Assembly (NCBI GenBank): GCA_041556855.1
Contig: JBFFHS010000002.1
Span: 26,056-90,055, forward strand
Direction: 5' to 3'
DNA length: 64,000 nt
Origin: Gammaproteobacteria bacterium
GTDB lineage: Bacteria > Pseudomonadota > Gammaproteobacteria > Steroidobacterales > JBFFHS01
Both the position numbers and the translations under genes were made by a program. The notes under the pieces are model-generated. The model was given only the letters and a program-made list of their open reading frames with translations, did not search any database and was not told where the DNA came from. This document shows, piece by piece, positions 16,732 through 47,234 of the stretch (positions are counted from its first letter, which is position 1; every line of letters begins with the position of its first letter).

Positions 16732-16746
16732 TGTTGTTTCCTCCGC

Positions 16747-19166: not shown

Positions 19167-19202
19167 TGTTCTTAGCCTCCCTTCCTGGGATTACGCGCCT
19201 CT

Positions 19203-32892: not shown

Positions 32893-33147
32893 GGTGGGGT
32901 CCAAATATTGAAGTTAGCCAGGGATCTTAACGCTTCAAGCGCCATGCTGGCATGCGCAGGGTACGCCGGACAGCATCAAGCTGGGGCCGCCAAGCTGTTT
33001 GAGGCGAAGCAGAGCGGGAGCGGGCCGGGGCGCGTCGCGCAGCCGCGCAAGACGCGGGGCAACACTGTCAGATGACCCGGCTCCAGGCTCGCGCCGTACC
33101 CGGGAAGAGCCAAGCGCCCCCTGGGGGGCGGCGAACAACCCCGGCAA

Positions 33148-33369: not shown

Positions 33370-33756
33370 CCATTAACCGGCACAAAGCAAGCGCCCAAGG
33401 TTATTCTGGTGGATATTGATGACCGGGTACTGTCCGGTGAGCATTCTAACGCTCATCCCCACAGCGGGTTGACGCGGGCGATGGCGCATTTGGATCTGTT
33501 AGTGCAGCGGGAGTGTTCGAGACTGGGGGCGTTCTGCGCGCGGCGCTGGGTGGTGCGGCCGCCCTTGAGCCCCAGGTAACATAGCGGGGCGCGGTAGCCA
33601 GTAAAAACACGAGAAAGCCCCGGACACCATGGCCGTCACCGGTCGCGTTGTTCCCGCCTGCGAGGCATGAGCCAAGTCGGTAGGAAACCCGATGGTCATT
33701 CAAGCAAAGCTTCGGTATTTTCGTTCTCCACTGGCGGGGCGTGTCGACTTATCAGA

Positions 33757-36387
33757 ATGAAAGGCTCAAAGAACACGAGCAGCACCCTCAACAGGTTGTT
33801 GCTGGCTGCTATAGGTGTCGGCACGTTCGTGACCTGGGCAGCTGTCAACCAATCGCGCCCGGCAGCGGCCTGGCCGACCCTGGTTGACGGCTATGCCTTT
33901 TCGCCTTTGCGTCGTGGCCAAGACCCTTCACGCGGCGAATATCCGTCTCACGCTGAGATTGAAGCTGATTTGCGCCTGCTGGCCGGGCACAGCGGCGCCA
34001 TTCGAACTTACTCACTGAACGGCACCCTGCGTGAGATCCCCCGCATTGCCGCGCGCCTCGGTTTTGACGTTACGGTCGGCGTCGAGCTCAATAAGGATCC
34101 GCGCCGCAACCGTGCGCAGCTTGCCGCGCTCCGTGCGGTTGAGCTCAGCACGGACAACCTCAAACGCGCCATCATTGGCAATGAGATGTTGCTGACCTCG
34201 ATGTTAGCGATCGATGATCTGAAACGAACGCTGAGTCGCGCGCGGCGCGAGTCGGGACTCGCTATCAGCACGGCGGAGCCATGGCATGTCTGGCTGGAAT
34301 ACCCCGAGCTAGCCCACCATGTCGACTTTATTACCGTGCATCTGCTGCCGTACTGGGAGGGTATCCATGTCGATGAGGCGGTCAATTTTGTCATCGCCAG
34401 GCTAGCGACTCTCAAGGAGACGTTTCCCGAAAAGCCAATTCTTATCGGGGAGGTTGGCTGGCCAAGCTTCGGTCGAACCCGCGGACGGGCGGTCGCCTCC
34501 CCCGCCAATGCGGCCGCCTTCCTGCGCGAGTTCACAAGCCGCGCTCATGATCTGGGCTATGACTATTTCCTCATGGAAGCCTTCGACCAGCCCTGGAAGC
34601 GCTCGATAGAAGGAGAAGTGGGTGCGTACTGGGGCATATACGACGTGGACCGCCGGCTCAAGCTGCAGCTCACCGGCCCTATCGCGCCCTTGCCGGGTTG
34701 GGGCCTGTGGTCATTGCTGGCAGCGGTGCTGGCCAGCCTGGCCTTCCGCACAATGGTCGCGGATGGCCACCGGTTTGAAGCGCGGGGCCGCACGTTTATG
34801 GCGTTCATTGCCGCCGCCATGGCCACGGGCTGCCTGTGGACCTTCAGCCTGCATTCGACGCGGTACTGGAGCGTCGTCGACGCACCTGCCGCTGTTTTGA
34901 TGCTCGTCGGCACACTCGGCATCGTGCTGCTCGTGCTGGTCGAGGCTCACGAATGGGCCGAAGCCCGATGGTGCGCCCGAGCGCGGCCCCCCTCACCAGC
35001 TGAGTCAGCGCATCCGGGGCGATTGCCAAAAGTTTCGATCCACTTGCCCGCCCATGAGGAGCCGCCGGAACTCCTGTTAGAGACGCTCAGCGCTCTTGCC
35101 AGGCTCGATTATCCGAATTTTGAGGTACTCGTCATCGATAACAATACCGCTGACGAGCAGCTCTGGCGGCCGGTGGAGGCATTCTGCTCGCATCTCGGCG
35201 CAAACTTTCGCTTCTATCACGTAAATCCCTTGCAAGGCTACAAGGCTGGGGCCCTTAACTTTGCCCTGCGGCATACTGCTAACGATGCCAGCATCGTGGC
35301 CGTCATAGACAGCGACTATAAGGTCGATCCGAGGTGGTTGCGGGACCTGGTGCCCGAATTCACAGCACCCGCCGTTGCCATTGTCCAGGCTCCGCAAGAC
35401 TACCGCGATGGCGAGTCCAGCGTATTCAAAGCGATGTGCGCCGCTGAGTACCAGGGCTTTTTTAAGATCGGCATGGTCACACGCAATGATCGCAACGCGA
35501 TCATTCAGCATGGCACGATGACGATGATCCGCAAGAGAGTACTCCGCGAGGTAGGCGGCTGGGCCGAGTGGACCATTACGGAAGATGCGGAGCTTGGTCT
35601 GCGCGTACTGGAACATGGTTATGAAGCAAGATATATCCGGACCAGCTACGGCAAGGGGCTAACGCCGGACAATTTCCAGGATTACAAAACGCAGCGATTT
35701 CGTTGGGCAGTCGGCGCTAGTCAGATCCTGCGCAGACACGGCCCCTTGTTGATCGGTACAAAGCCCAGCGCCCTCACCCGCGGTCAACGCTACCACTTTG
35801 TGGCAGGTTGGTTGCCCTGGCTGGCAGACGGCTTCAATCTATTCTTCACTGCTCTCGCCTTAGCGTGGTCTGTACTGGTACTCATTGCGCCGGCTCACTT
35901 TCATGCGCCCCTTGCGTCTTTCTCCACCTTCGTGCTCGCATTATTCGTCTTCAAACTCGCCAAAGTGCTCATGCTGTACCGGGCCCGAGTGGGAACTAGT
36001 TTCGGGCGTAGCTTAGGCGCCGCCGTCACAGGCCTGAGTCTCGTGTACACGATAGGCAGGGCCGTCATTCTCGGTTTTTTCGTTCAAGATGCGCGTTTTC
36101 TCAGAACACCCAAGCTGGCCCACCCACACACCTTGAGGGGCGCTCTATACGCGGCGGCACCTGAGACTGCTCTCGCCAGCGCTTTGCTCGCTTGTGCAGT
36201 GGGAATCTCGACAACCGGAACCTTCGAAAGCATCGATCGGGACGTGTGGGCGGCACTCCTGTTGGTGTTGGCCGTGCCTCATCTGTCAGCGTTACTGTTA
36301 GCGGTCACTAATTCCCTGCCCTGGATTCGCGCCAAGGGCGTCGCTCGCGGTCCCGATAATGTGATCGGCGGCGGGCGGCGCCCATGA
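33757..36387 (+). CDS. ndvB: NdvB-like bifunctional glucan synthase: N-terminal GH17 domain, C-terminal processive GT2 domain, multiple TM helices
   Basis: GH17 signatures IIGNE and ILIGEVGWPSFG. GT2 motifs VLVIDNNTAD, VIDSDY, QAPQDY, TEDAELGLR, QRFRWAVGA. Start set at ATG 33757 (MKGSKN); the ORF-track start is 33667. Confidence 0.8.
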   Translation: MKGSKNTSSTLNRLLLAAIGVGTFVTWAAVNQSRPAAAWPTLVDGYAFSPLRRGQDPSRGEYPSHAEIEADLRLLAGHSGAIRTYSLNGTLREIPRIAARLGFDVTVGVELNKDPRRNRAQLAALRAVELSTDNLKRAIIGNEMLLTSMLAIDDLKRTLSRARRESGLAISTAEPWHVWLEYPELAHHVDFITVHLLPYWEGIHVDEAVNFVIARLATLKETFPEKPILIGEVGWPSFGRTRGRAVASPANAAAFLREFTSRAHDLGYDYFLMEAFDQPWKRSIEGEVGAYWGIYDVDRRLKLQLTGPIAPLPGWGLWSLLAAVLASLAFRTMVADGHRFEARGRTFMAFIAAAMATGCLWTFSLHSTRYWSVVDAPAAVLMLVGTLGIVLLVLVEAHEWAEARWCARARPPSPAESAHPGRLPKVSIHLPAHEEPPELLLETLSALARLDYPNFEVLVIDNNTADEQLWRPVEAFCSHLGANFRFYHVNPLQGYKAGALNFALRHTANDASIVAVIDSDYKVDPRWLRDLVPEFTAPAVAIVQAPQDYRDGESSVFKAMCAAEYQGFFKIGMVTRNDRNAIIQHGTMTMIRKRVLREVGGWAEWTITEDAELGLRVLEHGYEARYIRTSYGKGLTPDNFQDYKTQRFRWAVGASQILRRHGPLLIGTKPSALTRGQRYHFVAGWLPWLADGFNLFFTALALAWSVLVLIAPAHFHAPLASFSTFVLALFVFKLAKVLMLYRARVGTSFGRSLGAAVTGLSLVYTIGRAVILGFFVQDARFLRTPKLAHPHTLRGALYAAAPETALASALLACAVGISTTGTFESIDRDVWAALLLVLAVPHLSALLLAVTNSLPWIRAKGVARGPDNVIGGGRRP

Positions 36388-36415: not shown

Positions 36416-37165
36416 GTGAGCGGCACTTCGAGATTACTGGGCGTCGCGCGCTCTGCAGTCACCTATTACGGCATCCCCTTCCGCGCGCGGCGGCTGCAGC
36501 GCCTGTACGCTCCCTTCGTCGGAAAGGGTGACTTGTGCTTCGATATTGGCGCCCACATGGGCAACCGGATTAGGTGCTGGCGACGCCTGGGCGCACGGGT
36601 CGTCGCCGTTGAGCCCCAGCCGGATTTCTTTCGAATACTGCAGCAATTCTACGGAGCGGACCCGGCGGTAACGCTGCTTGAGCAAGCCGTCGGGCGTGAG
36701 CCGGGCGAAGCCGTGCTGTATATCAGCGAGCGATTTCCAACGGTGACCACCTTGTCGAACCAATGGATAAGACAGGTCAAGACAGACCGGTCTTTCAAAG
36801 AGGTTACGTGGTCGAAAACTACGCAAACCCGCGTCACCACGCTGCAACAGCTGATTGACGCTCACGGGCGACCGCGTTTCGTAAAGATCGATGTGGAGGG
36901 CTATGAATCGGAGGCGCTGGCAGGTCTTCATACGGCAATTCCGCACCTGTCGTTCGAGTATCTTCCCATCGTGCGCCATATCGCTCTTGAATGCGTGGAT
37001 CGTTTGGCGCAACTGGGCGTCTACCGGTACAACTGGTCACCCCGAGAGAGCCATCGCCTGATGGAGACGGAATGGCTTGACTCCCAGCGCATGGTCCAGC
37101 TACTCAAGATCCTGCCCAAGCGTTCGCCATCCGGCGATATCTATGCGCGGCTGATCGGTGGCTGA
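36416..37165 (+). CDS. FkbM-family SAM-dependent methyltransferase
   Basis: CFDIGAHMGNRIRCW and VVAVEPQP near the N-terminus; FVKIDVEGYESEAL near the C-terminus. GTG start. Confidence 0.75.
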   Translation: MSGTSRLLGVARSAVTYYGIPFRARRLQRLYAPFVGKGDLCFDIGAHMGNRIRCWRRLGARVVAVEPQPDFFRILQQFYGADPAVTLLEQAVGREPGEAVLYISERFPTVTTLSNQWIRQVKTDRSFKEVTWSKTTQTRVTTLQQLIDAHGRPRFVKIDVEGYESEALAGLHTAIPHLSFEYLPIVRHIALECVDRLAQLGVYRYNWSPRESHRLMETEWLDSQRMVQLLKILPKRSPSGDIYARLIGG

Positions 37166-38872
37166 AGCTGCGTCCTCGGCAGACAGCCGGCTCGACCCCG
37201 ACAACGCTCGAAGCAGAAGCCTCGTCAACTCATGCATTGGTCCGATCGTATCGACGCCGGGCTCAGGTCCCGAAACGAAGCCGCTAGCCAATAGCGCATC
37301 TATTGCATCCCGCCTGTTTGTGATCACATGCACAGGGACGTCCCAGCGGGACTGTTCTCCGCTGACACTCGCCGGCGGCTGGTGATCGCCGACGAGCACC
37401 ATGAACATGTCAAGATCCGCGCGCCGGCGGAGATAGCCGCTAACATACTCAAAGGTGTACGCCAGCGTATCCGAATAGTCCTGGCTCAAGTCCGTCCAGT
37501 TCGGCTTCACGGCGAGCGTTCGCGCCACCACGTCCTGGTCAAAAGGTTCCTCTGCGAGCAGGCGTTGCCAGTCTGGCTGGTAGGCCGGCGTTGGACGGAA
37601 AGGCATATGTGAGCTGATCGTGGAAAAGAACAGAAACAGGGGCGCCCGTGCGGTAGCGGTGAGCTCTATCTGATCCAGCTTCCCAAGAGCAAATTGGTCG
37701 GGTATGCGCCACCAGCCGAACTCGGGCCCGTCATATTGCAGGGCCCGTTCGCCATAGATGGCGTCGAAGCCATAAAAAGCACCTTCCGGCCATTCACGCT
37801 TGAGGCCGGGCATAAGGCCCACCACTCGGTAGCCCTTACGGGCGAACATGTGAGTCAACGAGTCGCAGTCCTGTGTCAGCAATAAATTGTAGGTTCCTTG
37901 GTCACGAACGGGACGACCCATGAGCAGGCTCATATGAGCAAGCCAGGATGCGCCGCCGAAAGTGGGCGAGGTCACTAAGGCAGACACCAACTGCCGCCCA
38001 CTTTCTCGCGCCGCGTCCGCCATCAGCTGGCGACTGGGCGCCAGTCTTCGTGAGATCTCCGGTCGGTCGTAAGCAAGCGCCCCGTAGGATTCCAAAAACA
38101 CCAGAAAAAAATCATCCCCGGCAACCCCGGCGAGCTCGGGGTCGCCATCCTGCTCGGGACATAGTGTCGCCCCGGGATCTTTGGTCTGGTGGTAAGCATT
38201 GAGCGTAAATTCCGCCTGCCGCGCAAAGGTGATGCTGACGGGCACAGAAAACCAACTCCAGGTGCGAAACGGCAGGGAGGTGTAGCCGATCAGGAAAAGA
38301 CCGACCAAACCCGCCATAGCCACTGTCAGGATGCGGCGCGCCAGTGGAACGGCCAAACCATGCTGGACTTGAGCCAGGCACCACTTTATCCCCCAAAACG
38401 CTAAGCCGGCCGCGGCGACCAGTCCGACTGTCATCAACACAACGACATAGGGGGACGCTGCCTGGGCCAACATGGCGAGCACGTTGAGAACGTGCGGGGC
38501 GTCCCAGTAGAGATTCACCGGTCGCCCGTAGAGAGCCGGTGCGGTGACCTCGGCGTACCGGCCGACAGCCAGCACAAGCAGTAACGCGGCGAGGCCTGTC
38601 ATGGTGCCGCGTGACGGCAGCTTCACCACCTCGCTATACAGCGCAAGCAGGAGCACGATGGCCGCAACCTCAACAGACAATTCGTGGCGGGTTGTAATCC
38701 ACAAGGTGGGCCAGACGTTGTGAAAACTCAGCAGAAAGTTAAGAACAAACAGGGCCGCGCCCAACGACAGGCTCAGTCTCAGGGCGCCGGTGCTGCGAAA
38801 GCGCGAGCGCAACGTGCTGGCAAAATCCCTTACCCGGCCTGCCCTGCTGGGGCCCTGCCCGACCGACCTCAT
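37100..38872 (-). CDS. Membrane-anchored sulfatase/alkaline-phosphatase-superfamily transferase (OpgB/LtaS-like)
   Basis: About 200 aa of N-terminal TM helices followed by a soluble domain (FFLVFLESYGA, SPTFGGASWLAH, FFSTISSHMPF, LVGDHQP). ATGA overlap with the upstream gene. Confidence 0.65.
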   Translation of the reverse strand: MRSVGQGPSRAGRVRDFASTLRSRFRSTGALRLSLSLGAALFVLNFLLSFHNVWPTLWITTRHELSVEVAAIVLLLALYSEVVKLPSRGTMTGLAALLLVLAVGRYAEVTAPALYGRPVNLYWDAPHVLNVLAMLAQAASPYVVVLMTVGLVAAAGLAFWGIKWCLAQVQHGLAVPLARRILTVAMAGLVGLFLIGYTSLPFRTWSWFSVPVSITFARQAEFTLNAYHQTKDPGATLCPEQDGDPELAGVAGDDFFLVFLESYGALAYDRPEISRRLAPSRQLMADAARESGRQLVSALVTSPTFGGASWLAHMSLLMGRPVRDQGTYNLLLTQDCDSLTHMFARKGYRVVGLMPGLKREWPEGAFYGFDAIYGERALQYDGPEFGWWRIPDQFALGKLDQIELTATARAPLFLFFSTISSHMPFRPTPAYQPDWQRLLAEEPFDQDVVARTLAVKPNWTDLSQDYSDTLAYTFEYVSGYLRRRADLDMFMVLVGDHQPPASVSGEQSRWDVPVHVITNRRDAIDALLASGFVSGPEPGVDTIGPMHELTRLLLRALSGSSRLSAEDAASATDQPRIDIAGWRTLGQDLE

Positions 38873-39627
38873 GTGGGGGACTGCTCCTGCCCAATGTCAT
38901 TTTCGGCGACACGAGTCAGGTATGCGACATCGATAGCAAAAGACCCGGCGAGCAGGGCAAAACCAATCAGCGCGATTGCGCCGCTAACCGGTGGAACGAC
39001 AATCGGTGATATACAAACGATCAGGGCAATGGCCTGGATGACGAAAGCGGTCTGGCGACGACGGCTGGGGGGCAGCGGACCTGTCAGGAAAGGCAGCAAT
39101 GCCCCAGCTGCCACAAACAGATAGCGCATGACTCCTGCCAGGACAATCCAGGGCCCCACCTTGCCGTACTGCCAGGCGAGCAGCGTGAAGATCAGCAGCA
39201 GCGCCGCATCCGTCTCCATGTCGAAACGGGCACCGAAAGCGCTGGCACAATCAAGCCGGCGCGCCAGCCAGCCATCGAGACCATCCAGAGCGAGCGCAAT
39301 CGAGCCCGCAACAACCACGACCCAGGGGGCGGAGATCTCACCAATCAGCCCAACCAGCAGCGCCAGGAGTCCGGCGCGCGCCAGCGTTGCCCGGTTCGCA
39401 GCTCCGAAAGAGTGCGAGACCAGGTGCCTGAGGGCGAGAACCAGCGTCAGCAAGCCGCCCAGAACGAATGCGGCACCTGCTTTCCATGGGAACCAATAGC
39501 TCAAACTCAGACCGCGCTGCAAGAGCGTGGCGAGCCCTGCCAGTGCCACGAGAACGGTAACGCCGGTGAGGAGAAATTCAATTGACAGGCGTCGACAATG
39601 AGTGTTGAGTCGAACACATTGAAGCAT
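38869..39627 (-). CDS. CDP-alcohol phosphatidyltransferase family protein
   Basis: Family motif DGLDGWLARRLDCASAFGARFDMETDA, i.e. D-G-x2-A-R-x8-G-x3-D-x3-D. Polytopic membrane protein. Confidence 0.8.
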   Translation of the reverse strand: MLQCVRLNTHCRRLSIEFLLTGVTVLVALAGLATLLQRGLSLSYWFPWKAGAAFVLGGLLTLVLALRHLVSHSFGAANRATLARAGLLALLVGLIGEISAPWVVVVAGSIALALDGLDGWLARRLDCASAFGARFDMETDAALLLIFTLLAWQYGKVGPWIVLAGVMRYLFVAAGALLPFLTGPLPPSRRRQTAFVIQAIALIVCISPIVVPPVSGAIALIGFALLAGSFAIDVAYLTRVAENDIGQEQSPT

Positions 39628-39697
39628 GTTTCAACGCTTGCATGTTTCCAATCGTCTTGCAAGTATGTTCGGGTTTCTGGCAACACCCTTGACCGGT

Positions 39698-40681
39698 ATG
39701 GCTGCACGAAACAAGGCGCGAGCTTTCTGGATTACGGCGGCGGGCCGGGGGGAGATTCGCGACGAGAACCTGGCCGCACCCGGTTCCGACGAGGTGTTGG
39801 TACGAACGTGTTATTCAGCTATCAGCCGTGGTACCGAGACGCTGGTATTTTCCGGCGCGGTCCCACCGAGTGAGTTCCAGCGCATGCGGGCCCCCTTTCA
39901 GGTTGGCGATTTCCCCGCGCCGGTCAAGTATGGGTATATCAATGTGGGCGTTGTCGAGCAGGGCCCGAGCGCGCTGCGAGGGCGCTCGGTCTTTTGCCTG
40001 TATCCTCACCAGACGCGCTATGTCGTGCCGGCGAGCGCTGTGTGCGCTCTGCCGGATGGACTGCCGCCCGAGCGCGCCGTGCTCGCGGCCAACCTTGAAT
40101 CAGTAGTAAACGGGCTTTGGGACGCGGCGCCTCGAGCTGGCGATCGCATCGCCGTTATCGGCGCGGGCACGCTGGGATGCTTGTTTGCCTGGCTGGCGGC
40201 CCGATTCCCCGGCTGCGAAGTGGAGCTCATAGATATTAATGTTGAAAAGGCAGCGATCGCAAAGCTGATCGGCGTCCCCTTCATGCTCCCGAACCAAGCA
40301 ACGCCGGAGGCCGATCTGGTCGTTCACGCCAGCGGTAGTTCCGACGGTCTAAGCAACGCACTGGAATTGGCTGGATTTGAGGCAACGGTGCTTGAGATGA
40401 GCTGGTTCGGGAACCGTCGCCCCACCCTGCCCCTCGGTGAGGCCTTCCATGCAAAGCGTCTGACCCTTCGATCGTCGCAGGTGTCCGCCGTCGCGGCCGC
40501 GCAGCGCTCACGATGGACGCCGCGGCGCAGATTGGAACTGGTGCTCCGCCTTCTGCTGGACCCCTGCCTGGACGGATTAATTACCGGTGAGAGCAGTTTT
40601 TCTGAGCTACCGGAGGTTCTGAAGCGTCTCAGTAAAGACCCCGGTAACACTCTCTGCCACCGCATCACTTATACTGATTAG
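39698..40681 (+). CDS. MDR-superfamily (zinc-ADH-like/BchC-like) dehydrogenase without the canonical zinc ligands
   Basis: Rossmann motif IAVIGAGTLGCL. The N-terminal catalytic-domain segment reads VLVRTCYSAISRGTE instead of the G-x-C-G-S/T-D-x-H type. Start chosen at ATG 39698 (alternatives 39665 and 39626). Confidence 0.65.
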   Translation: MAARNKARAFWITAAGRGEIRDENLAAPGSDEVLVRTCYSAISRGTETLVFSGAVPPSEFQRMRAPFQVGDFPAPVKYGYINVGVVEQGPSALRGRSVFCLYPHQTRYVVPASAVCALPDGLPPERAVLAANLESVVNGLWDAAPRAGDRIAVIGAGTLGCLFAWLAARFPGCEVELIDINVEKAAIAKLIGVPFMLPNQATPEADLVVHASGSSDGLSNALELAGFEATVLEMSWFGNRRPTLPLGEAFHAKRLTLRSSQVSAVAAAQRSRWTPRRRLELVLRLLLDPCLDGLITGESSFSELPEVLKRLSKDPGNTLCHRITYTD

Positions 40682-40706
40682 AGTCCATAGAGCTTACGAG
40701 ATACAA

Positions 40707-41123
40707 ATGCATAGCGTTTGCGTCAGAGATCATGTCATGATCGCCCATAGTCTAAAAGGAGAGGTCTTCGGACCCGCCCAACAGTTGCACGGCGCCACCT
40801 ATGTCGTGGACGTGGAGTTTCGCCGCGAAGAACTTGATTCGGATGGCATAGTTGTCGACATCGGGCGTGCCAGCGACGTGTTGCGTTCCATATTGTCCGA
40901 GCTCAATTATCGCAATCTGGATGACGACGGCGCTTTTTGCGGGCAAAACACGACCACGGAGGTGCTGGCTGCGGTGATCTTTGAGCGGATGGCTGCACAA
41001 GCGCGCGCTGGGTCTCTTGGTGCCTCGGGCCGTTCCTTGCACGCCATGCGCGTCACCCTGCATGAATCCCATATCGCCTGGGCGGCCTACGAGGCTCAGT
41101 TAGATCAGGGCGCCGACATGTGA
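40707..41123 (+). CDS. 6-pyruvoyl-tetrahydropterin synthase/QueD-fold protein, divergent active site
   Basis: Aligns by eye to E. coli QueD (IAHSL, LHGATYVVDVEF, DGIVVDIG, TTTEVLAAVIF). The catalytic Cys, the third zinc His and the LDHHYLN His are all replaced. Confidence 0.6.
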   Translation: MHSVCVRDHVMIAHSLKGEVFGPAQQLHGATYVVDVEFRREELDSDGIVVDIGRASDVLRSILSELNYRNLDDDGAFCGQNTTTEVLAAVIFERMAAQARAGSLGASGRSLHAMRVTLHESHIAWAAYEAQLDQGADM

Positions 41124-42175
41124 GCGCTGATCCTGCGCTCGACTTTTTACTGCCGGGGGATCTACAGACGCTGACGGGAGGTTACATTTACGACCGTCGT
41201 ATTGTGCAGGGCCTGGGCGCGCTGGGTTGGCGGGTGACGATCCATTCGCTGCATCCGCGTTACCCCTGGCCGCCATCGGCCGCGCTGGATGAAGCCCGAG
41301 CGACTTTCAGGGCTTTGCCGGACCGCGGCCTCGTGGTGATCGACGGCCTGGCCCTCGGCGGCATGCCGGAAGTGGTGGAAGAGCATGCCCGGCGCCTGCG
41401 CCTCGTGGCGCTGGTCCATCACCCCCTGGCCGCGGAAACAGGCCTGACTCCCAAGCAACGGCATACCCTGGAGCATTCCGAAAGGCGGGCGCTGGCCGCC
41501 GTCGACAGGATCATCGTGACCAGCGCCTGGACCGGGCGCCAGCTTGCCGACTACGGCGTGCCTGCGGGCCGGGTGGCCACCGTGTGTCCCGGCACAGATC
41601 CGGCGCCGCTGGCTCACGGATCGCACGGCTTGGAGTTAAACCTCCTGTGTGTAGCGACACTGACGCCTCGGAAAGGGCACGCGGTGTTGTTTGAAGCCCT
41701 TGCCGGGATTCGCGAGCGCTCCTGGCACCTCACCTGTGTCGGCAGCCTGAAGCGGGATCCTGCAACGGTTGCGGACCTGCGGGGCCGCGTCGAACGGCTC
41801 GGGTTGACCGGGCGCGTGACCTTGCTGGGAGAACTCTCAGCCGATGCCCTCGCCCGCCAATACGCCCGTGCCGACGTGTTTGTGCTGGCCTCTTACCTGG
41901 AGGGCTACGGCATGGTCCTCACCGAAGCGGTGTCCAGAGGCCTTCCCGTGGTCAGCACCTCGGCTGGCGCCATTCCCGAAACGGTGCCGGCCGACGCAGC
42001 TCTGTTAGTGCCCCCGGGCGACAGCAGCGCTTTGGCGAGCGCATTGGCGCAGCTCACGGACGATCCAGCCACCCTGAGAGCTCTGGCAAGCGGCGCGCGC
42101 AGGGGCCGTCATCGGCTTCCGACCTGGGAACACGCCAGCGCGCGCTTCGCCGCCGAACTGCAGCGTTTGGCATGA
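41120..42175 (+). CDS. GT-B glycosyltransferase (Glycos_transf_1/GT4-like)
   Basis: C-terminal E-x7-E region EGYGMVLTEAVSRGLPVVST. GTG start overlaps the upstream stop (GTGA). Confidence 0.8.
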   Translation: MSADPALDFLLPGDLQTLTGGYIYDRRIVQGLGALGWRVTIHSLHPRYPWPPSAALDEARATFRALPDRGLVVIDGLALGGMPEVVEEHARRLRLVALVHHPLAAETGLTPKQRHTLEHSERRALAAVDRIIVTSAWTGRQLADYGVPAGRVATVCPGTDPAPLAHGSHGLELNLLCVATLTPRKGHAVLFEALAGIRERSWHLTCVGSLKRDPATVADLRGRVERLGLTGRVTLLGELSADALARQYARADVFVLASYLEGYGMVLTEAVSRGLPVVSTSAGAIPETVPADAALLVPPGDSSALASALAQLTDDPATLRALASGARRGRHRLPTWEHASARFAAELQRLA

Positions 42176-43038
42176 CCACCTTTTCCAGCACCTGGCTCAG
42201 CTTGCGAGAACCCCGCGATGCGCTGTCCCGCTCACGGCGAATGGTGCGTTCTTTGCGGCGGCTATTGTCCGATCGACCGATTCAGATCACTGACCTGGCG
42301 AGCGGCACTGGCGCCAACCTGCGCTTCGCGGCTGAGGCTCTAGGCGGTCGCCAGAATTGGTCCCTGATTGACCACGACCGGGCCCTGCTCGATGCCATAC
42401 CACAGCGAATGCAGGATTGGGCGGCTCGCTGCGGCGCGAGCGTCACGCAGTCCGGACCAGAGATCATCATTCAGGGACAAAGCTTCGAATGCCGAGCCCG
42501 CGTTTCGCAGCAGGACCTGGCCCCGGACCTGGCCGCGATTGATCTGCCGGCACTAGCCCCGGTTACCGCGTCCGCCTTGTTAGACCTGGTGTCCGATGCC
42601 TGGCTGACGGCCCTGGCCCAACGCTGTTGCAGCGTCCGTGCCCCCGTGCTGTTCGCACTGACCTACGACGGGCAACTCAGCTTCAATCCGCCGGAGCCCG
42701 AGGATGATCAAATCCGTGAGCTGATCAATATTCACCAGACCGGCGACAAGGGCTTCGGGCCAGCCCTCGGCCCGGCCGCGGCCCTTAAGGCCAGGCGGCG
42801 CTTTGCGGAGGTCGGGTATCACGTGGAACTTGAGCGCAGCGACTGGCAGGTCGGGCCGGCTGATGGGGATCTGCAGCTCGCGCTGCTGGACGGCTGGCTG
42901 AGCGCCGCCATGGAAATTGCGCCCCAGGAGAGGTCGGCGCTGGAGGGCTGGCTGCAGCGACGCCGCGCCCATGTGGCGAGTGGGCGCTCCGCCCTCAGGG
43001 TGGGGCACGTTGATGTCCTGGGGTGGCTGCCGGACTGA
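42172..43038 (+). CDS. Putative SAM-dependent methyltransferase
   Basis: Motif-I-like ITDLASGTGANLRF and a post-I acidic residue (LIDHD). ATGA overlap with the glycosyltransferase gene. Confidence 0.55.
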   Translation: MTTFSSTWLSLREPRDALSRSRRMVRSLRRLLSDRPIQITDLASGTGANLRFAAEALGGRQNWSLIDHDRALLDAIPQRMQDWAARCGASVTQSGPEIIIQGQSFECRARVSQQDLAPDLAAIDLPALAPVTASALLDLVSDAWLTALAQRCCSVRAPVLFALTYDGQLSFNPPEPEDDQIRELINIHQTGDKGFGPALGPAAALKARRRFAEVGYHVELERSDWQVGPADGDLQLALLDGWLSAAMEIAPQERSALEGWLQRRRAHVASGRSALRVGHVDVLGWLPD

Positions 43039-43051
43039 GCCCGGGTTTGGC

Positions 43052-44032
43052 TCAGAATACCCGACTCAGGCGCCCCCTCTGCGGGCGCTCGGCGTCGGTG
43101 TCATCATGCGCACGCAAATCGCAGTCAAAGAGAACATCCTGTCCCATGGCGAAGATACGGTGTGGCGGCCTGAGGCAGTCCGTCAGCCGGGGGCTTCCAA
43201 CCAGGCGTATTCCAGGGCGCCCGGCCCCGATCAGCAACGGCGCGATCGCCACCTGCAGACGGTCGAGCAGACCCGCCTCGAGAAACGCGGACACGGTGTA
43301 GCCGCCGCCCTCGACGAATACCGCGTTCAGGCGCCTGGCGTGCAGCGCAGCCATGAGTGCCTCGAGCTGGAAGCGGCCGGCGCGAAACGGAATGCCTAAA
43401 ACTTCGGCGGAGCCGATCCGCTCGGCATCGTTGGACAACCGAGCGTTGTTGCAGACCAGCAGCGTGGCTGCTTGCTCATCACAAAACACGCCGTGCTCCG
43501 CGCTGAGCCGTCGATTTGGATCCAATATCACTCGCACCGGGTTTGTTCCGGCTGCCCGTCGCGCCGTCAGCTGGGGGTTGTCAGCCGCAACGGTGCCTGC
43601 CCCAACCACCACGGCATCGCAAAGCGCTCGCATGCGATGCAGGTGGAGCAGGTTCTCTGGGCCCGTAACGTAGAACGAATCTCCGCCGCTGGTGGCGATA
43701 TGGCCATCGAGTCCCTGCCCGAGGTGTCCTACCGTCAGGGAAGAACGGCCGCCGGAGTTACAGACCGGCAGATACAGATCCAACAGCGCATGCACCGCGG
43801 CGGGTGCGGTTGCCGCGCGGCTCCAGCCTTCAGGCTTCCGCCAGACCAGCAGCGCACTGGGGTCTGCCGCCGCGACCGGACTCATTCGGCCATCGCGAAA
43901 ACCGCAGGCGAAACCATCCGCAGGGCTTGCCTTCCGTCGAACCCGGTCGGCGGCCCACAATAACGCGCTCCAAGCGCGCTCGACCTCCGCACCGCCGTCC
44001 AGCCCGGGTCCGTGGGCGGTAGGAACAGGCAT
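43052..44032 (-). CDS. RibD C-terminal-domain (DHFR-fold) reductase with ~100-aa N-terminal extension and no deaminase domain
   Basis: TVGHLGQGLDGHIAT, HLHRMRALCDAVVVGAGTVAADNPQLTAR, VFVEGGGYTVSAFL. No HAE or PCxxC deaminase motifs are present. Confidence 0.75.
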   Translation of the reverse strand: MPVPTAHGPGLDGGAEVERAWSALLWAADRVRRKASPADGFACGFRDGRMSPVAAADPSALLVWRKPEGWSRAATAPAAVHALLDLYLPVCNSGGRSSLTVGHLGQGLDGHIATSGGDSFYVTGPENLLHLHRMRALCDAVVVGAGTVAADNPQLTARRAAGTNPVRVILDPNRRLSAEHGVFCDEQAATLLVCNNARLSNDAERIGSAEVLGIPFRAGRFQLEALMAALHARRLNAVFVEGGGYTVSAFLEAGLLDRLQVAIAPLLIGAGRPGIRLVGSPRLTDCLRPPHRIFAMGQDVLFDCDLRAHDDTDAERPQRGRLSRVF

Positions 44033-44117
44033 ATCGATGAATCAATACTGTGGAAACTGCTATGCTATCACCGTAGCCGGCCGAGCCGAACACCAGGCCA
44101 CGGAAGAAGAAAAGCAA

Positions 44118-45212
44118 ATGAACGGCCATCCCGCAGCAATCAACGGAGACCCCGCGGCGCTTGAGGCCGAGCGCGCCGTCGAGGAGTTGCGCCGCGGGCG
44201 CGTCATTCAGCTGTTTGATGGCGACCAATCGCTGCTGATTGCCGCCATGGAGACCTTAGAGCCCCCCCTGTTCGAGCGGTTACGGTCCCTGCGTCGCAGC
44301 GAAATGGCGCTGCTGATCACTTCACAGCGGAGCGAAGCGATGCAACTGGCGCAAGCCGCGCCCGGCCCGGTGGCGATCTCATTCCCACCGAAGACACGGC
44401 TGGAGCAGCTGCGTGCCGTGGCTGGGGTGCATTCCCACGGGCTTAGCGAGAAATTACAGCTCCGCCCGCTTCCCGCGGAGAACCCGGAACTCGCCGACGC
44501 CGGCTTCCGTTTGGCCAAGCTGGGCAAACTCCTGCCGGCACTGCTGGCTGTAAGAACCGCGGCCGCGCCGGGCACTGATATTCTGAACCTTAGCGTCTCG
44601 GCTATGGCCCAAGCATTTCGGGATGACCTGAGTTTGATAAGCCGCGCTCGCGTGCCTCTGGTCCATGCCGTAGACACCGACATCGTGTTGTTTCGGCAAC
44701 GGCATGGCTTTGGGGAGCACCTGGCTATTCTGATCGGTGACCCCAACCTGAAGGCCGCGGTACCGGTTCGGCTGCACTCAGCTTGCCTTACGGGCGATGT
44801 CCTGGGGAGCCTGCGTTGTGACTGCGGCGATCAGCTCAAACGGGCTGTCAGCCGCATGGTCTCGTTGGGCGGCGGCGTGCTGCTGTACCTGGATCAGGAG
44901 GGCCGCGGTATCGGGCTCGCCAACAAACTGCGCGCCTACGACCTGCAGGACGCTGGTCTGGATACCCTGGATGCGGATAAGCATCTCGGCTTCCTTCCCG
45001 ACGAGCGAACTTACGATGTTGCCGCCCTGATGCTACGCGAGCTGGGCATCCAGCGCATTCGGCTTCTCACCAACAACCCTTATAAAATTCGCGCCTTGAC
45101 CCAGTTGGGCATTCAGGTCGCGGGACGAATGCCCCTGGTGGCACCGGTGAATACCCACAACCAGCGATACCTCCAGGCCAAGCTCGATCGGGCCGGTCAC
45201 CTGGCTGAATAG
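44118..45212 (+). CDS. ribA: GTP cyclohydrolase II with a degenerate RibB-like N-terminal domain
   Basis: C-terminal half is close to E. coli RibA: VRLHSACLTGDVLGSLRCDCG (zinc Cys triad), EGRGIGLANKLRAY (Tyr kept), LLTNNP. The N-terminal ~165 aa start RAVEELRRGRVIQLFDG but lack RENEGD. Start chosen at ATG 44118. Confidence 0.8.
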   Translation: MNGHPAAINGDPAALEAERAVEELRRGRVIQLFDGDQSLLIAAMETLEPPLFERLRSLRRSEMALLITSQRSEAMQLAQAAPGPVAISFPPKTRLEQLRAVAGVHSHGLSEKLQLRPLPAENPELADAGFRLAKLGKLLPALLAVRTAAAPGTDILNLSVSAMAQAFRDDLSLISRARVPLVHAVDTDIVLFRQRHGFGEHLAILIGDPNLKAAVPVRLHSACLTGDVLGSLRCDCGDQLKRAVSRMVSLGGGVLLYLDQEGRGIGLANKLRAYDLQDAGLDTLDADKHLGFLPDERTYDVAALMLRELGIQRIRLLTNNPYKIRALTQLGIQVAGRMPLVAPVNTHNQRYLQAKLDRAGHLAE

Positions 45213-46027
45213 TCGCCGCGCCCATCAGGTGCCTGGTCAAGCACGGCCAACGGGGTCTCTGCTAGCTCCGTAAGTAAAGTAACGAGGACGCCGGCCAGGT
45301 GGTCAAGGTAGGCGGCCCCACGATGCTCGTCGGCGCCCGTGGCACTCCCGGTCACGCCAGCAGGGTGCAGATCCTGACTCATCCAGCCAAAGCCAACCGG
45401 CGACTCGGCACCCAACGCATCATTGCGGCGCGCCATATGCGCCGCCAGCCCCTGGAAGTCCGCCAGGGCCTCCCGGCGCACCAGCTCGGGCCGCACGTGC
45501 ATCATCAACGAGGTCTCTACGGCCCCGCCGTGGAGGCCGAGCGCTAACTCGTCTTCCTCGAACAATCCAGGGGGCACGCCGAAGGAGAAGTAGTTGGCGC
45601 GCGCGACCAGCATCTGCTGTTCGACCCGCAGCCGCAGGGCAACGAGGTCCACCAGCCCGGCCTGACCCCCGTGGCTGTTGAGGATGACGAGCTTGCGCAC
45701 TCCTGCTCGGGCAACGCTCGTCCCGACGGCCTGCCAGACCGCCACGACCGTCTCAGCATCAACGCTCAGGGTACCCGCAAAAGCGGTGTGCTCGAGACTG
45801 CTGCCGATATTGATTGCCGGTAACACCAGCACCGTGGGTCGCTCTTTAAGCCGTTCCAGGGACGCGGTGACGATGGCCTCATTGATTACGGCGTCCGTGG
45901 CCAGTGGTAGGTGTGGACCATGTTGCTCGACTGCCGCGACGGGCAAAAGCGCGACCGTATTCTCCGGCTCAAGTCGCGCGAAGTCGCACGTTGTGAGCTC
46001 CTGCCAGTATCCGCTCGCGACGCTCAT
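45197..46027 (-). CDS. Creatininase-family amidohydrolase
   Basis: LPVAAVEQHGPHLPLATD, NSHGGQ, LHGGAVETS. 16-nt convergent overlap with the ribA-like gene. Confidence 0.75.
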   Translation of the reverse strand: MSVASGYWQELTTCDFARLEPENTVALLPVAAVEQHGPHLPLATDAVINEAIVTASLERLKERPTVLVLPAINIGSSLEHTAFAGTLSVDAETVVAVWQAVGTSVARAGVRKLVILNSHGGQAGLVDLVALRLRVEQQMLVARANYFSFGVPPGLFEEDELALGLHGGAVETSLMMHVRPELVRREALADFQGLAAHMARRNDALGAESPVGFGWMSQDLHPAGVTGSATGADEHRGAAYLDHLAGVLVTLLTELAETPLAVLDQAPDGRGDYSAR

Positions 46028-46036
46028 AGGATGATA

Positions 46037-46663
46037 TTAACGTCTGCGGGCCTCGAACTCGATCAGGATCTCTACTGTATCGCCCACCCAGCCGTTGGCT
46101 ACAGCATAGGTCATGCCGAATTCGCTGCGCTTGAGGCTTCCGCGCGCTGATACCCCCATCACATATTTCCAGAGCTCGATGGGATGCCGGGCGCTCTTGT
46201 TCCAGCTCGCAGTCAATGTCAGGGGCAGTGTTACGCCGAGCAGCTTGAGATTGCCGGTGACCCGATAGATATTCTCCCCCGCCCGCTCAACTTTGGTCCC
46301 GGTGAAAGTCATCGTGGGAAATTTCGGTGCGTCCAAGAAATCTTTGCTCCGCAGATGCTCATCCCGCCGCTCATGGTCCGTAAAGACCGTTGCCGTGTCG
46401 ACGGTGACCAAAACGTCGGACAACTCTCCCGTCTCGTCGTCAAATCGATAGGCGCCTGTTACCTCGCGGAACCTCCCCAGGACCTTGGCGTAGCCAAGAT
46501 GGTCCACGAGGAAAGCCACGGTGACGTGCTCGGGATCGATTTCGTAGCGTACAGAATCAGCTCTGGTCACGACCCCGGCAAGCACTAAAGCGCACAGAAA
46601 AAGTACGCGGACCGGTTGTCGCCAGGACCGCGGCAGCGGAAGTGATGCGACAACCTTACACAT
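46037..46663 (-). CDS. YceI-family periplasmic (polyisoprenoid-binding-type) protein
   Basis: Signal peptide, then YEIDPEHVTVAFLVDHLGYAKVLGRF, the typical YceI start. LKLLGVTLPLTL. GAGGA RBS before ATG 46663. Confidence 0.8.
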   Translation of the reverse strand: MCKVVASLPLPRSWRQPVRVLFLCALVLAGVVTRADSVRYEIDPEHVTVAFLVDHLGYAKVLGRFREVTGAYRFDDETGELSDVLVTVDTATVFTDHERRDEHLRSKDFLDAPKFPTMTFTGTKVERAGENIYRVTGNLKLLGVTLPLTLTASWNKSARHPIELWKYVMGVSARGSLKRSEFGMTYAVANGWVGDTVEILIEFEARRR

Positions 46664-46937
46664 GAAGGAATCCTCGGATCGATGCCATCTTCGGCGCTCT
46701 GCTACAAGCTTAGGGCCCATCGAGACCTATCGACGAGTACACTGGCCTGGGGACCAGGCCATCGATCATACAGACCCAACCCCGCCACAACACATGAACC
46801 GCCCCGTCTGTCTCGGAGGCCCCATACCGGTCCGGATGCAATATGGCTAGCTCCTGACGGAAGCCACGCACTGAGTTGCTCCCCTACAACGACTCCAGCT
46901 GGTGAGAGAGACTTTGACCAGGAAAAGGAGACGGACG

Positions 46938-47157: not shown

Positions 47158-47234
47158 TGGTAGCGGGGGCAGGATTCGAACCTGCGACCTTCGGGTTATG
47201 AGCCCGACGAGCTGCCAGACTGCTCCACCCCGCA
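47158..47234 (-). tRNA. tRNA-Met (CAT), initiator type
   Basis: The 77-nt reverse complement, TGCGGGGTGGAGCAGTCTGGCAGCTCGTCGGGCTCATAACCCGAAGGTCGCAGGTTCGAATCCTGCCCCCGCTACCA, is near-identical to E. coli tRNA-fMet. It has three G:C pairs closing the anticodon stem, no Watson-Crick pair at 1:72 (U/U by my reading), and an encoded CCA. Confidence 0.9.

Follow-up and report, generated by a model that had tools for sequence, protein, structure and literature searches.

Gene content of the locus

The window, a 64,000-nucleotide stretch of contig JBFFHS010000002.1 from a gammaproteobacterium, holds a compact group of genes (Table 1). The nine families named in the original prediction across positions 38869-46663 were all confirmed using Pfam and NCBIfam profile searches, PDB matches and an AlphaFold model. 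The nine genes are real; an adjacent sulfatase-like transferase, an FkbM methyltransferase and a GH17-GT2 glucan synthase, all part of the extended unit, had been omitted.

Table 1. Genes of the extended unit, with positions in the window
Position	Strand	Product	Evidence or remark
33667..36387	+	GH17 + GT2 membrane glucan synthase, NdvB-like architecture; accessory	Pfam GT2 families + Glyco_hydro_17
36416..37165	+	FkbM-family methyltransferase; accessory	Pfam Methyltransf_21 E = 7e-13; NCBIfam fkbM_fam E = 2e-24
37100..38872	-	Membrane-anchored alkaline-phosphatase superfamily enzyme, possibly LtaS/OpgB/EptA-like; five N-terminal hydrophobic segments	Pfam Sulfatase 29 bits
38869..39627	-	CDP-alcohol phosphatidyltransferase, uncharacterised subfamily; six hydrophobic segments	Pfam CDP-OH_P_transf E = 1.5e-13; divergent from core operon
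39626..40681	+	MDR-superfamily dehydrogenase/reductase, zinc-free, BchC-like	Core operon gene 1; probable start 39698
40707..41123	+	SCO6650-type T-fold protein, PTPS/QueD homologue without full zinc triad or catalytic Cys	Pfam PTPS E = 3e-25
41120..42175	+	GT4 (GT-B) glycosyltransferase	Pfam Glycos_transf_1 / Glyco_trans_1_4, E = 1e-27 to 7e-30 (Glyco_trans_1_4 7e-30)
42172..43038	+	Class I SAM methyltransferase, cluster-specific, outside curated families	AlphaFold model + Foldseek
43052..44032	-	Stand-alone RibD_C pyrimidine reductase, no deaminase domain	Pfam RibD_C E = 9e-39
44037..45212	+	GTP cyclohydrolase II (GCH II, ribA), long-form (N-terminal ~190 aa of unknown family + catalytic domain)	Pfam GTP_cyclohydro2, E ~1e-55 to 2e-55
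45197..46027	-	Creatininase-family amidohydrolase, candidate formamidopyrimidine deformylase	Pfam Creatininase E = 1e-65
46037..46720	-	YceI-family periplasmic lipid-binding protein, signal-like N-terminus	Pfam YceI E = 6e-43; one N-terminal hydrophobic segment

Every overlap and gap reported earlier was found again on re-reading the sequence. The T-fold stop and GT4 start share a GTGA (41120-41123), and the GT4 stop and methyltransferase start share an ATGA (42172-42175); both overlaps are consistent with translational coupling within the core operon. The TCAT at 38869-38872 is a minus-strand ATGA shared by the LtaS-like start and the CDP-alcohol transferase stop. Gaps of 9 nt (46028-46036) and 13 nt (43039-43051) separate yceI from the creatininase gene and the methyltransferase stop from the RibD_C stop, while ribA and the 3' end of the creatininase gene overlap convergently by 16 nt (45197-45212). 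When the longest ORFs are taken, the MDR (start 39626) and CDP-alcohol transferase (start 39627) genes overlap, which is judged to be an artefact; the true MDR start probably lies at 39698, because the Streptomyces MDR aligns only from residue 31 onwards.

The MDR protein matched Pfam weakly (ADH_zinc_N, E = 1e-3) and was supported by NCBIfam BchC (E = 5e-12) and PDB alcohol dehydrogenases (E = 1e-5), with polyol dehydrogenases among its NCBIfam and PDB relatives. The family invariants include SRGTE, KYGY and GxGxxG, and no Cys is invariant. The T-fold protein matched PDB 3D7J (SCO6650 of S. coelicolor) at E = 7e-48 and ~57% identity. It carries HGA in place of HGH, with the loss of one zinc His; Ala30 is invariant, as is the pterin-anchoring Glu (E120). 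It was rejected as a true PTPS or QueD, since neither the third zinc His nor the catalytic Cys is retained. The best PDB relatives of the glycosyltransferase were sucrose-phosphate synthase (6kih), MshA (7qsg/3c4q) and PimB' (3oka), and its nearest relatives glycosylate phosphorylated sugars or polyols, or phosphatidylinositol. The methyltransferase gave only a marginal Pfam match; its AlphaFold model (pLDDT 96) matched class I SAM methyltransferases in Foldseek at TM 0.5-0.6. Natural GT4-methyltransferase fusion proteins apparently exist.

The RibD_C reductase may start at 43960 or 44032, its N-terminal ~90 aa being poorly conserved in the conservation profile. Its best PDB matches were DAROPP reductases of the archaeal type (6p8c, 2azn), which act on undeaminated substrate. 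GCH II (NCBIfam PRK08815, E = 8e-101) is given in public records as 391 aa from 44037, with an alternative start at 44118, and retains three zinc Cys and a Tyr at the column of E. coli Y105. A RibD deaminase, the lumazine and riboflavin synthases and GCH I had been described as missing, and the window indeed contains no RibD deaminase, RibB, RibH, RibE, GCH I or FMN riboswitch.

The CDP-alcohol transferase has an invariant DGx2AR...Gx3Dx3D motif and resembles PssA, CPT1 and PgsA at the motif level only. The neighbouring sulfatase-like product is tentatively regarded as LtaS-like from a low-scoring Pfam match, weak similarity to PDB entries (E about 0.5), a weak profile match to the LTA primase 4uop, and an active-site spacing that we take to be characteristic. 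Sixteen of 18 members of this family also matched Pfam Sulfatase; E261, H422, D496 and H497 are invariant and T304 nearly so.

Conservation of the neighbourhood

Eighty loci from other genomes were retrieved using the methyltransferase as the query; they are mutually related, and all counts below are therefore of non-independent events. The methyltransferase family comprises 1,422 clusters at 50% identity with E <= 1e-30, and at least 580 of 600 reference-genome stretches among the matches listed encode a member. The MDR (62/80), T-fold (68/80), GT4 (77/80) and methyltransferase genes were collinear in 59 of 62 complete cases. RibD_C lay convergent directly after the methyltransferase gene, within 3 kb downstream, in 41/51 loci, and the divergent neighbour of the MDR gene was a CDP-alcohol transferase (40) or an MdoH glucan synthase (7) in 47/55. 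GCH II was found within 10 kb in 36/80 loci, in at least four positions relative to the core with the linkage kept. Of the 39 wide-view loci, 35 contained RibD_C, 31 the CDP-alcohol transferase, 25 the LtaS-like gene, 24 GCH II, 18 FkbM and 13 creatininase.

This set of neighbours is found repeatedly in four bacterial phyla, with examples in Gamma-, Alpha- and Betaproteobacteria, Acidobacteriota and Streptomyces, so the arrangement is more than chance. The locus is a genuine conserved gene cluster extending from Streptomyces to Proteobacteria and Acidobacteria, and the neighbourhood survey thus upholds the earlier proposal of co-conservation. Among the outer genes first included, creatininase recurs (19/80, only beside long-form GCH II), while YceI is a loose associate (9/80, mostly adjoining the CDP-alcohol transferase).

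Several envelope-linked genes accompany the core. In the wide-view loci the LtaS-like gene occurred only together with the CDP-alcohol transferase (25 with both, 6 with the transferase only, 0 with the LtaS-like gene only, 8 with neither; Fisher p = 5e-5); alphaproteobacterial loci have neither gene, which counts against the envelope reading. FkbM was found in 27/80 loci. The GH17-GT2 synthase, which links the cluster to periplasmic glucan, has a full-length homologue at the same position in one locus (L080) and a fragment in another (L009). LPG_synthase_TM (MprF-type flippase) domains are present in Streptomyces and in locus L001, MdoH with a ChvA/NdvA-type glucan exporter in Hyphomicrobiales loci and MdoG in Terriglobia; periplasmic-glucan genes were adjacent in only about 13/81 loci. 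A membrane or lipid link, at first a guess, is strengthened by the conserved CDP-alcohol transferase, the LtaS-like transferase, the flippase domain and the periplasmic-glucan genes.

A close Streptomyces relative shares the gene content and order of the cluster, and the S. coelicolor counterpart is probably SCO6648-SCO6655; the Streptomyces cluster has no RibD_C. Identity to the Streptomyces counterparts was 58% for MDR, 57% for the T-fold protein, 38% for the CDP-alcohol transferase and 35% for creatininase. The GCH II paralog SCO6655 has reportedly been characterised biochemically. Late in growth, the expression of SCO6652 and SCO6655 rises (PMC3610822, PMC2853524). No paper assigning a product to the cluster, and no characterised pathway with the same gene set, was found in the literature, as originally supposed. 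The description of the system as undescribed holds for its product and must be qualified for its proteins, a crystal structure of the T-fold orthologue SCO6650 (3D7J) being already available.

Proposed pathway and alternatives

The reading we prefer, to which we give roughly an even chance, is that the cluster converts GTP to a glycosylated and methylated pyrimidine or pterin that is passed to the cell envelope; we infer both the chemistry of each step and the nature of the product. GCH II would open GTP to 2,5-diamino-6-ribosylamino-4(3H)-pyrimidinone 5'-phosphate, and the creatininase-family enzyme would strip the formyl group where the cyclohydrolase halts at the formamido stage. BrbF, a creatininase-family formamidase acting on formamidopyrimidine, is a precedent, although distant BrbF homologues gave no complementation in S. 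meliloti (PMC9478397). The window GCH II has the canonical Tyr, and a deformylase should therefore not be needed. The stand-alone RibD_C would reduce the undeaminated ribosylamine to a ribitylamine, which the zinc-free MDR and zinc-free T-fold proteins would remodel. In the favoured version the MDR would oxidise C2' and the T-fold protein would then close the ring to a neopterin-phosphate-like pterin, these steps and the RibD_C reduction being together the redox equivalent of the GCH I Amadori step. In Chlamydia, RibA and an Amadori isomerase lead to pterin (PMC4161248). GT4 would add a sugar and the fused or coupled methyltransferase would methylate the product; the CDP-alcohol phosphatidyltransferase may then make its phosphatidyl derivative, and the LtaS-like enzyme may move the phospho-head group onto a periplasmic acceptor, for example glucan. 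The MdoH glucan synthase or the MprF-type flippase domain may fill the envelope role in other lineages.

The locus might instead consist of two unrelated adjoining units, namely a riboflavin start (RibA, RibD_C reductase and BrbF-like formamidase; housekeeping or alternative) and an ordinary operon for a glycolipid or exopolysaccharide (MDR, T-fold, GT4, methyltransferase and CDP-alcohol transferase). The families of GCH II, RibD_C and creatininase all belong to the riboflavin pathway, S. meliloti and Brucella cannot make riboflavin without a creatininase-family formamidase (PMC9478397), and more than half of the loci are without GCH II within 10 kb. Such a division is nevertheless very unlikely, given the convergent RibD_C placement across phyla, a GCH II linkage that survives rearrangements, a reductase without a deaminase domain, the absence of the deaminase, RibB, RibH, RibE and riboswitch from the window, and the further GCH II genes of S. 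coelicolor, e.g. SCO2687, beyond the cluster copy.

Pteridine glycosyltransferases are documented (PMC5683033, PMC4133829), and the set of T-fold protein, reductase, GT-B enzyme and methyltransferase resembles the pterin-glycoside pathways. The product could accordingly be a soluble pterin glycoside like those of cyanobacteria and Chlorobium. In that case the T-fold and MDR proteins would turn dihydroneopterin triphosphate from folate GCH I into a biopterin-like pterin, GT4 would glycosylate it, the methyltransferase would modify the sugar, and the membrane genes, GCH II and RibD_C would be bystanders. The invariant anchoring Glu would fit this account, which we rate as unlikely: the T-fold protein is without the residues needed for PTPS chemistry, the Chlorobium pteridine glycosyltransferase is GT1-like whereas that of the present cluster is GT4, a membrane transferase gene lies divergently beside the core in 47/55 loci, and RibD_C is linked in 80% of viewable loci. 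Of similarly low probability is an envelope glycophospholipid or periplasmic glucan without a GTP-derived moiety, for which the T-fold and MDR proteins would act on a sugar or polyol and GCH II and RibD_C would supply a flavin or pterin cofactor or be co-regulated. The linkage to the CDP-alcohol transferase, LtaS-like enzyme, flippase domain, MdoH/MdoG/NdvB-like genes and glucan exporter favours it, together with the MshA and PimB' relatives of GT4 and the polyol dehydrogenase relatives of MDR. The T-fold family retains its anchoring Glu, however, and a dedicated extra GCH II and deaminase-less reductase across phyla are hard to explain as cofactor supply. To our knowledge, characterised T-fold enzymes all bind purine- or pterin-type rings, which also counts against a GTP-free product.

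Returning to the GTP-derived envelope compound, the GTP-derived input could be supplied differently or be dispensable, since GCH II is near the core in fewer than half of the loci and RibD_C is missing in the Streptomyces cluster. With middling confidence, we regard the window locus as the gammaproteobacterial version of an orphan biosynthetic cluster that is widespread among bacteria.

Gene content and arrangement of the cluster

The gene map was drawn from an ORF listing and profile searches (Pfam, NCBIfam), and the genes of the cluster and of its right edge are given in the following table. The set of gene families named in the original prediction was accurate and the feature is real; the family assignments held, with only the MDR dehydrogenase and the methyltransferase needing support beyond Pfam. 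The start/stop overlaps and short intergenic distances claimed for these genes were re-read from the sequence, and every one was exact.

Coordinates of the cluster genes and right-edge features within the window
Feature	Coordinates	Strand	Basis
GH17 + GT2 membrane glucan synthase	33667-36387	+	profile search
FkbM methyltransferase	36416-37165	+	profile search
Sulfatase-superfamily membrane protein (LtaS-like)	37100-38872	-	profile search
CDP-alcohol phosphatidyltransferase	38869-39627	-	profile search
MDR dehydrogenase	39626/39698-40681	+	profile search
PTPS-like T-fold protein	40707-41123	+	profile search
GT4 glycosyltransferase	41120-42175	+	profile search
Methyltransferase	42172-43038	+	AlphaFold model
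RibD_C reductase	43052-44032	-	profile search
GTP cyclohydrolase II (GCH II)	44037-45212	+	profile search
Creatininase-family hydrolase	45197-46027	-	profile search
YceI	46037-46720	-	profile search
tRNA gene, right edge of cluster	47161-47234	-	
HiPIP (high-potential iron-sulfur protein) gene, between tRNA and nuo operon	47572-47916	+	

The GTGA and ATGA overlaps suggest that the T-fold, GT4 and methyltransferase genes are translationally coupled. The GT4 and methyltransferase genes are tightly coupled; apparent fusions of the two were also found (P0413, of 646 aa with both domains, P0437, P0425 and P0498), either genuine or produced by frameshifts at the ATGA overlap when metagenomes were assembled.

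The MDR protein was weak in Pfam but matched BchC (NCBIfam, 5e-12) and solved alcohol dehydrogenases. Its invariant features are an SRGTE motif as in BchC and a GxGxxG dinucleotide motif; no Cys is invariant, and the protein is therefore a zinc-free member of the superfamily. The methyltransferase fell into no family. Its AlphaFold model (pLDDT 96) is that of a class I SAM methyltransferase. All Foldseek matches to this model were generic enzymes of that class (TM 0.4-0.6), with no clue to the substrate. The nearest solved relatives of the GT4 protein were sucrose-phosphate synthase, MshA and PimB', enzymes that act on phosphates of sugars or polyols or on the head group of a phospholipid (PI).

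To the left of the cluster are Tad pilus genes and an ABC transporter, and to its right the tRNA and HiPIP genes and then the nuo operon. The Tad/Flp-type pilus cluster (8083-21091) encodes a secretin, a T2SSE ATPase, T2SSF, TadE-like and TadG-like proteins, an A24 prepilin peptidase and TPR proteins. An ORF of 447 aa (19203-20546, - strand) had no Pfam match at E <= 1e-5, and one of 793 aa (23703-26084, - strand) had none at E <= 1e-4. A TraF_2-family protein (31393-32904, - strand; Pfam E = 6e-36) is encoded between the ABC transporter operon and the glucan synthase gene, with no further conjugation genes in its vicinity.

Conservation across genomes and the Streptomyces counterpart

The methyltransferase, being central and cluster-specific, was used as the query of a neighbourhood scan with one genome per species, and relatives were encoded in at least 580 stretches (580 of the 600 matched). 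A synteny census was made on the best 80 of these at least 580 loci, which came from Gamma-, Alpha- and Betaproteobacteria and Acidobacteriota, by running profile HMMs built from the neighbour genes on all six-frame ORFs. The methyltransferase was present in 80 loci, GT4 in 77, the T-fold protein in 68, RibD_C in 65, MDR in 62, the CDP-alcohol transferase in 45, GCH II in 36, the sulfatase-like protein in 35, FkbM in 27, creatininase in 19 and YceI in 9. Many of the loci were cut by contig ends, and a second count was restricted to those with enough flank. Here the four-gene core (MDR, T-fold, GT4, methyltransferase) was collinear in 59 of 62 loci, and in 41 of 51 RibD_C was found no more than 3 kb downstream of the methyltransferase. 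With these figures and the spread over phyla, conservation of the genes as neighbours in other genomes, by which the original prediction was to be judged, was borne out. The divergent neighbour of the MDR gene was the CDP-alcohol transferase in 40 of 55 loci and the glucan glucosyltransferase MdoH in 7 of 55. In the 80 loci GCH II had at least four placements with respect to the core: it was divergent from RibD_C, co-directional with it, upstream of the sulfatase-like gene, or between that gene and the CDP-alcohol gene. A linkage that persists through rearrangement argues for a function shared with the core.

The synteny counts led to the rejection of chance adjacency of the cluster genes. Since the loci share ancestry, the counts are not independent events, and the spread over phyla, rather than the counts, is the real argument for a non-chance grouping. 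Six recurring census families (F9, F10, F13, F14, F19 and F20) proved to be antisense ORFs of conserved genes and were dropped.

Some lineages showed particular features. Three loci in MAGs labelled Bifidobacterium or Bifidobacteriaceae (L030, L043, L048) had a cluster order typical of Proteobacteria and Acidobacteria, and their contigs are probably mis-binned. In loci L004 and L012 a gene pair is inserted between the methyltransferase and RibD_C; read from their sequences, the products are ECF-type sigma factor-like and putatively anti-sigma/TonB-like, and they may be lineage-specific regulators of the cluster. Terriglobia loci L002, L005, L006 and L007 (at about 5500-6300) carry a histidine-phosphatase-family gene between the GCH II and CDP-alcohol transferase genes, a candidate for removing the 5'-phosphate of a pathway intermediate. 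In loci L054, L061, L078 and L079 the alphaproteobacterial cluster is flanked (at about 3580-4950 and 13800-15300) by a pair of conserved polytopic membrane proteins, about 447 and 502 aa long and with no Pfam or NCBIfam family, next to MdoH and a ChvA/NdvA-type glucan exporter.

The T-fold protein of the window matched PDB 3D7J ('uncharacterized protein SCO6650') at E = 7e-48, and alignment gave about 57% identity to Streptomyces family members. The Streptomyces context was taken from the locus of a 98%-identical Streptomyces protein (L084), scanned with the neighbour HMMs and Pfam; the probable S. coelicolor counterpart is SCO6648-SCO6655. In this locus a divergent CDP-alcohol transferase gene is followed by genes for MDR, T-fold, GT4, methyltransferase and a 405-aa LPG_synthase_TM (MprF flippase-like) protein, and there are also a convergent creatininase-family gene and a short GCH II. 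Identities between window and Streptomyces were 58% for MDR, 38% for the CDP-alcohol transferase and 35% for the creatininase. By its orthologous T-fold gene, with the same neighbours in the same order and with creatininase and GCH II nearby, the window cluster thus belongs with the SCO6650-type clusters. The Streptomyces cluster differs in having the flippase-like gene and no RibD_C, in lacking the LtaS-like, FkbM, YceI and glucan-synthase genes of the window, and in its short GCH II, in which the Tyr conserved in the window copy is a Met.

A metabolic-model paper lists SCO6655 as GTP cyclohydrolase II, with a further paralog SCO2687. In the Streptomyces locus the T-fold and GCH II genes are separated by four genes, and this spacing from SCO6650 fits GCH II being SCO6655. 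The Streptomyces GCH II aligned with Met at the column of E. coli Tyr105, in which Tyr goes with the complete GCH II reaction and Met with a stop at the formamidopyrimidine. This agrees with work from the Bandarian laboratory, in which SCO6655 is said to stop at the formamidopyrimidine because the conserved Tyr is replaced by Met; SCO6650 reportedly lacks the PTPS zinc site and catalytic triad and keeps the pterin-type pocket. The original prediction had offered the cluster as an undescribed system. No product or pathway assigned to it was found in a literature search. It is not wholly undescribed: prior work on the cluster comes to one structure (3D7J) and one reported enzyme activity, both from S. 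coelicolor.

Diagnostic residues of the enzymes and membrane proteins

The T-fold family is extremely conserved, with H9, H14, H28, D35, D51, N67, R69, N70, D72, N81, T82, E85 and H119-E120-S121-H122 invariant. The HGH zinc motif reads HGA, Ala30 being invariant in 25 family members, so that one of the three His of PTPS and QueD is missing, and in the segment FGPAQxLHGA neither the Cys nor the Glu of their catalytic apparatus precedes HGA. The protein is therefore not a PTPS or QueD (COG0720 types I-III), and from its residues it is predicted to be unable to carry out PTPS chemistry. The C-terminal Glu, by which pterin-type rings are anchored in this fold, is retained. In a review from 2016 of the PTPS/QueD family, the function of subfamily PTPS-V is called 'still unclear'; the SCO6650-type may or may not belong there.

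The RibD_C protein consists of the reductase domain only, with no deaminase domain in Pfam and about 90 poorly conserved residues at its start. Its best solved relatives were the archaeal-type 6p8c and 2azn, reductases of the undeaminated 2,5-diamino-6-ribosylamino-pyrimidinone phosphate. The HAE...PCxxC deaminase motif was absent from every ORF of the window, RibB (DHBP synthase), RibH and RibE were not found among its annotated ORFs (all but a few, mostly of the nuo stretch), and Rfam matched no FMN riboswitch in it. The predicted lack of a RibD deaminase and of lumazine and riboflavin synthases was thereby confirmed for the window ORFs covered by the motif and profile searches. No cluster protein matched a ToxC/ToxD-type family in general Pfam and NCBIfam profiles.

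The window GCH II is a long form with about 190-200 extra, poorly conserved N-terminal residues (44037-44660), for which no Pfam or PDB relative was found; nothing supports this extension as a degenerate RibB. The window copy and those of all 36 Gram-negative loci have the Tyr of the E. coli Tyr105 column as well as the three zinc Cys, and the window copy thus has the residues of the complete reaction. Among the 80 related loci the creatininase gene occurred only beside the long-form GCH II and never beside the Acidobacteriota short form. The idea that it tracks a Met-type GCH II was discarded, that type being found only in Streptomyces while all Gram-negative copies have Tyr; it tracks the long form instead.

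The CDP-alcohol transferase has six hydrophobic segments and the complete family motif D(x2)DG(x2)AR...G(x3)D(x3)D, with D115, G116, D118, G119, A122, R123, G132, D136 and D140 invariant; it resembles characterised members in the motif alone. The LtaS-like protein has five N-terminal hydrophobic segments, and 16 of 18 family members matched Pfam Sulfatase. On reading the sequence, no C/S-x-P-x-R sulfatase signature was seen around the conserved SPTFGG segment. E261, H422, D496 and H497 are invariant and T304 nearly so, in an order and spacing like those of the LtaS active site. PDB profile matches, to LTA primase and alkaline phosphatase, were weak (E about 0.5), and the single-sequence AlphaFold model (pLDDT 37) was discarded. 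The LtaS-like gene was never found without the CDP-alcohol transferase gene (25/6/0/8; Fisher p = 5e-5, the loci being related).

Further envelope genes accompany the core in other loci. Four loci have PlsC-type acyltransferases and nine have YceI, and an MprF-type flippase domain was found in Streptomyces and locus L001. MdoH was found in eight Hyphomicrobiales loci (above two NCBIfam cut-offs), a ChvA/NdvA-type glucan exporter in four (868 bits; cut-off 733), the GH17-GT2 synthase in the window and locus L080, and MdoG in two loci from Terriglobia. With three kinds of periplasmic-glucan gene in three lineages, chance association is unlikely. Such genes occur in only about 13 of 81 loci, and Streptomyces, which also has the cluster, is not known to make periplasmic glucans; the product would thus have several destinations, of which glucan is one at most.

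Proposed pathway, alternatives and significance

The cluster is a conserved operon with a linked, dedicated GCH II, a deaminase-less reductase and conserved membrane transferases. The original interpretation, a putative glycosylated and/or methylated GTP-derived compound that is possibly membrane-linked, is reasonable. In the pathway proposed here, GTP would be opened by GCH II, with removal of the formyl group by the creatininase-family enzyme where needed (BrbF is the formamidase precedent for such deformylation; PMC9478397). RibD_C would then reduce the ribosylamine, and the ribitylaminopyrimidine would be remodelled by MDR and the T-fold protein. In the preferred chemistry of this step, reduction at C1' by RibD_C and oxidation at C2' by MDR would give a 1-amino-1-deoxy-ribulose intermediate, the same as that of the GCH I Amadori step, and ring closure by the T-fold protein would yield a neopterin-phosphate-like pterin, a speculative step in keeping with the enzymes. 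A precedent for a GCH I-independent pterin route is the chlamydial RibA + TrpF bypass of FolE/FolQ, which takes the GCH II product through an Amadori-type intermediate to pterin (PMC4161248); unlike that bypass, the cluster has no TrpF, and RibD_C reduction, MDR oxidation and the T-fold protein would take its place. A sugar would be added by GT4 and the product methylated by the methyltransferase. The CDP-alcohol transferase would link the product to diacylglycerol phosphate, and the LtaS-like enzyme (in other lineages a flippase or MdoH) would deliver it to the outer face.

Parts of the cluster resemble known systems. The early riboflavin pathway (RibA, an archaeal/fungal-type DAROPP reductase and an ArfB/BrbF formamidase) uses the same three enzyme families, and its first two or three reactions are probably shared. 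Unlike that pathway, the window showed neither an FMN riboswitch nor genes for a pyrimidine deaminase, for the synthases of DHBP and lumazine or for riboflavin synthase, and its genes for the three shared families are linked to those of the T-fold, MDR, GT4, methyltransferase and membrane transferase proteins. A housekeeping start of riboflavin synthesis lying beside an unrelated operon is very improbable, given both the conserved linkage and the lack of a deaminase, RibB, RibH, RibE and riboswitch among the annotated features of the window. The pterin glycoside pathway of cyanobacteria and Chlorobium (PTPS, sepiapterin reductase, pteridine glycosyltransferase) has a similar logic of T-fold, reductase and GT-B enzymes, and cyanopterin carries sugar methylation, a possible parallel to the cluster methyltransferase. 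In contrast to that pathway, the window T-fold protein is without the PTPS catalytic apparatus, its glycosyltransferase is a GT4 where that of Chlorobium is GT1-like, and membrane transferases are attached; the input, too, is probably from GCH II rather than GCH I. That the cluster makes a soluble pterin glycoside, starting from the product of the folate GCH I, is unlikely, as the PTPS catalytic residues are lost and the membrane partners conserved.

The envelope arm recalls phospho-head-group transfer systems (PgsA and OpgB acting on periplasmic glucans, LtaS, EptA, BcsG) in pairing a CDP-alcohol phosphatidyltransferase with a putative five-helix alkaline-phosphatase-superfamily enzyme next to glucan-synthesis genes, a likeness of architecture and motif only. 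Both window proteins differ in belonging to uncharacterised subfamilies, and the head group would be new. Modification of an envelope glycolipid or glucan with no GTP-derived part seems a poor candidate, since the dedicated GCH II and reductase and the T-fold enzyme are hard to explain by it. That a GTP-derived aminopyrimidine can end as a glycoside is seen in faba bean, in which the GCH II enzyme VC1 leads to the pyrimidine glucosides vicine and convicine; that plant route has other downstream enzymes and no T-fold, MDR or membrane steps.

The cluster is read as a probable case of GTP-derived pteridine/flavin-type secondary metabolism in which the enzymes are new and an envelope arm is added. 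A further reading, of low probability, is that many bacteria, among them most Streptomyces, many Acidobacteriota of soil and a variety of Proteobacteria, produce a glycoside of a pteridine or aminopyrimidine that is anchored in the envelope. It would be a head group with a phosphatidyl link, which an LtaS-like enzyme could transfer to periplasmic glucan, and it would arise by a GCH I-independent route in which RibD_C and MDR would replace the Amadori step and a zinc-free T-fold enzyme would close the pterin ring. That the cluster is categorically new, in the sense of a lipid- or glucan-anchored pteridine, is likewise an outside chance. If true, a redox-active or fluorescent pteridine on a lipid or periplasmic glucan would be a new class of envelope constituent. 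With 1,422 methyltransferase protein clusters at 50% identity and at least 8,000 T-fold family candidates in each of two sequence searches, the cluster is among the larger conserved biosynthetic units without a known product. According to a 2026 review, pterin-binding regulators in the periplasm control biofilm formation and how pterins reach that compartment is unknown; the cluster could bear on this delivery. S. coelicolor offers a tractable organism, with a defined eight-gene set induced late in growth (SCO6652 and SCO6655; PMC3610822, PMC2853524).
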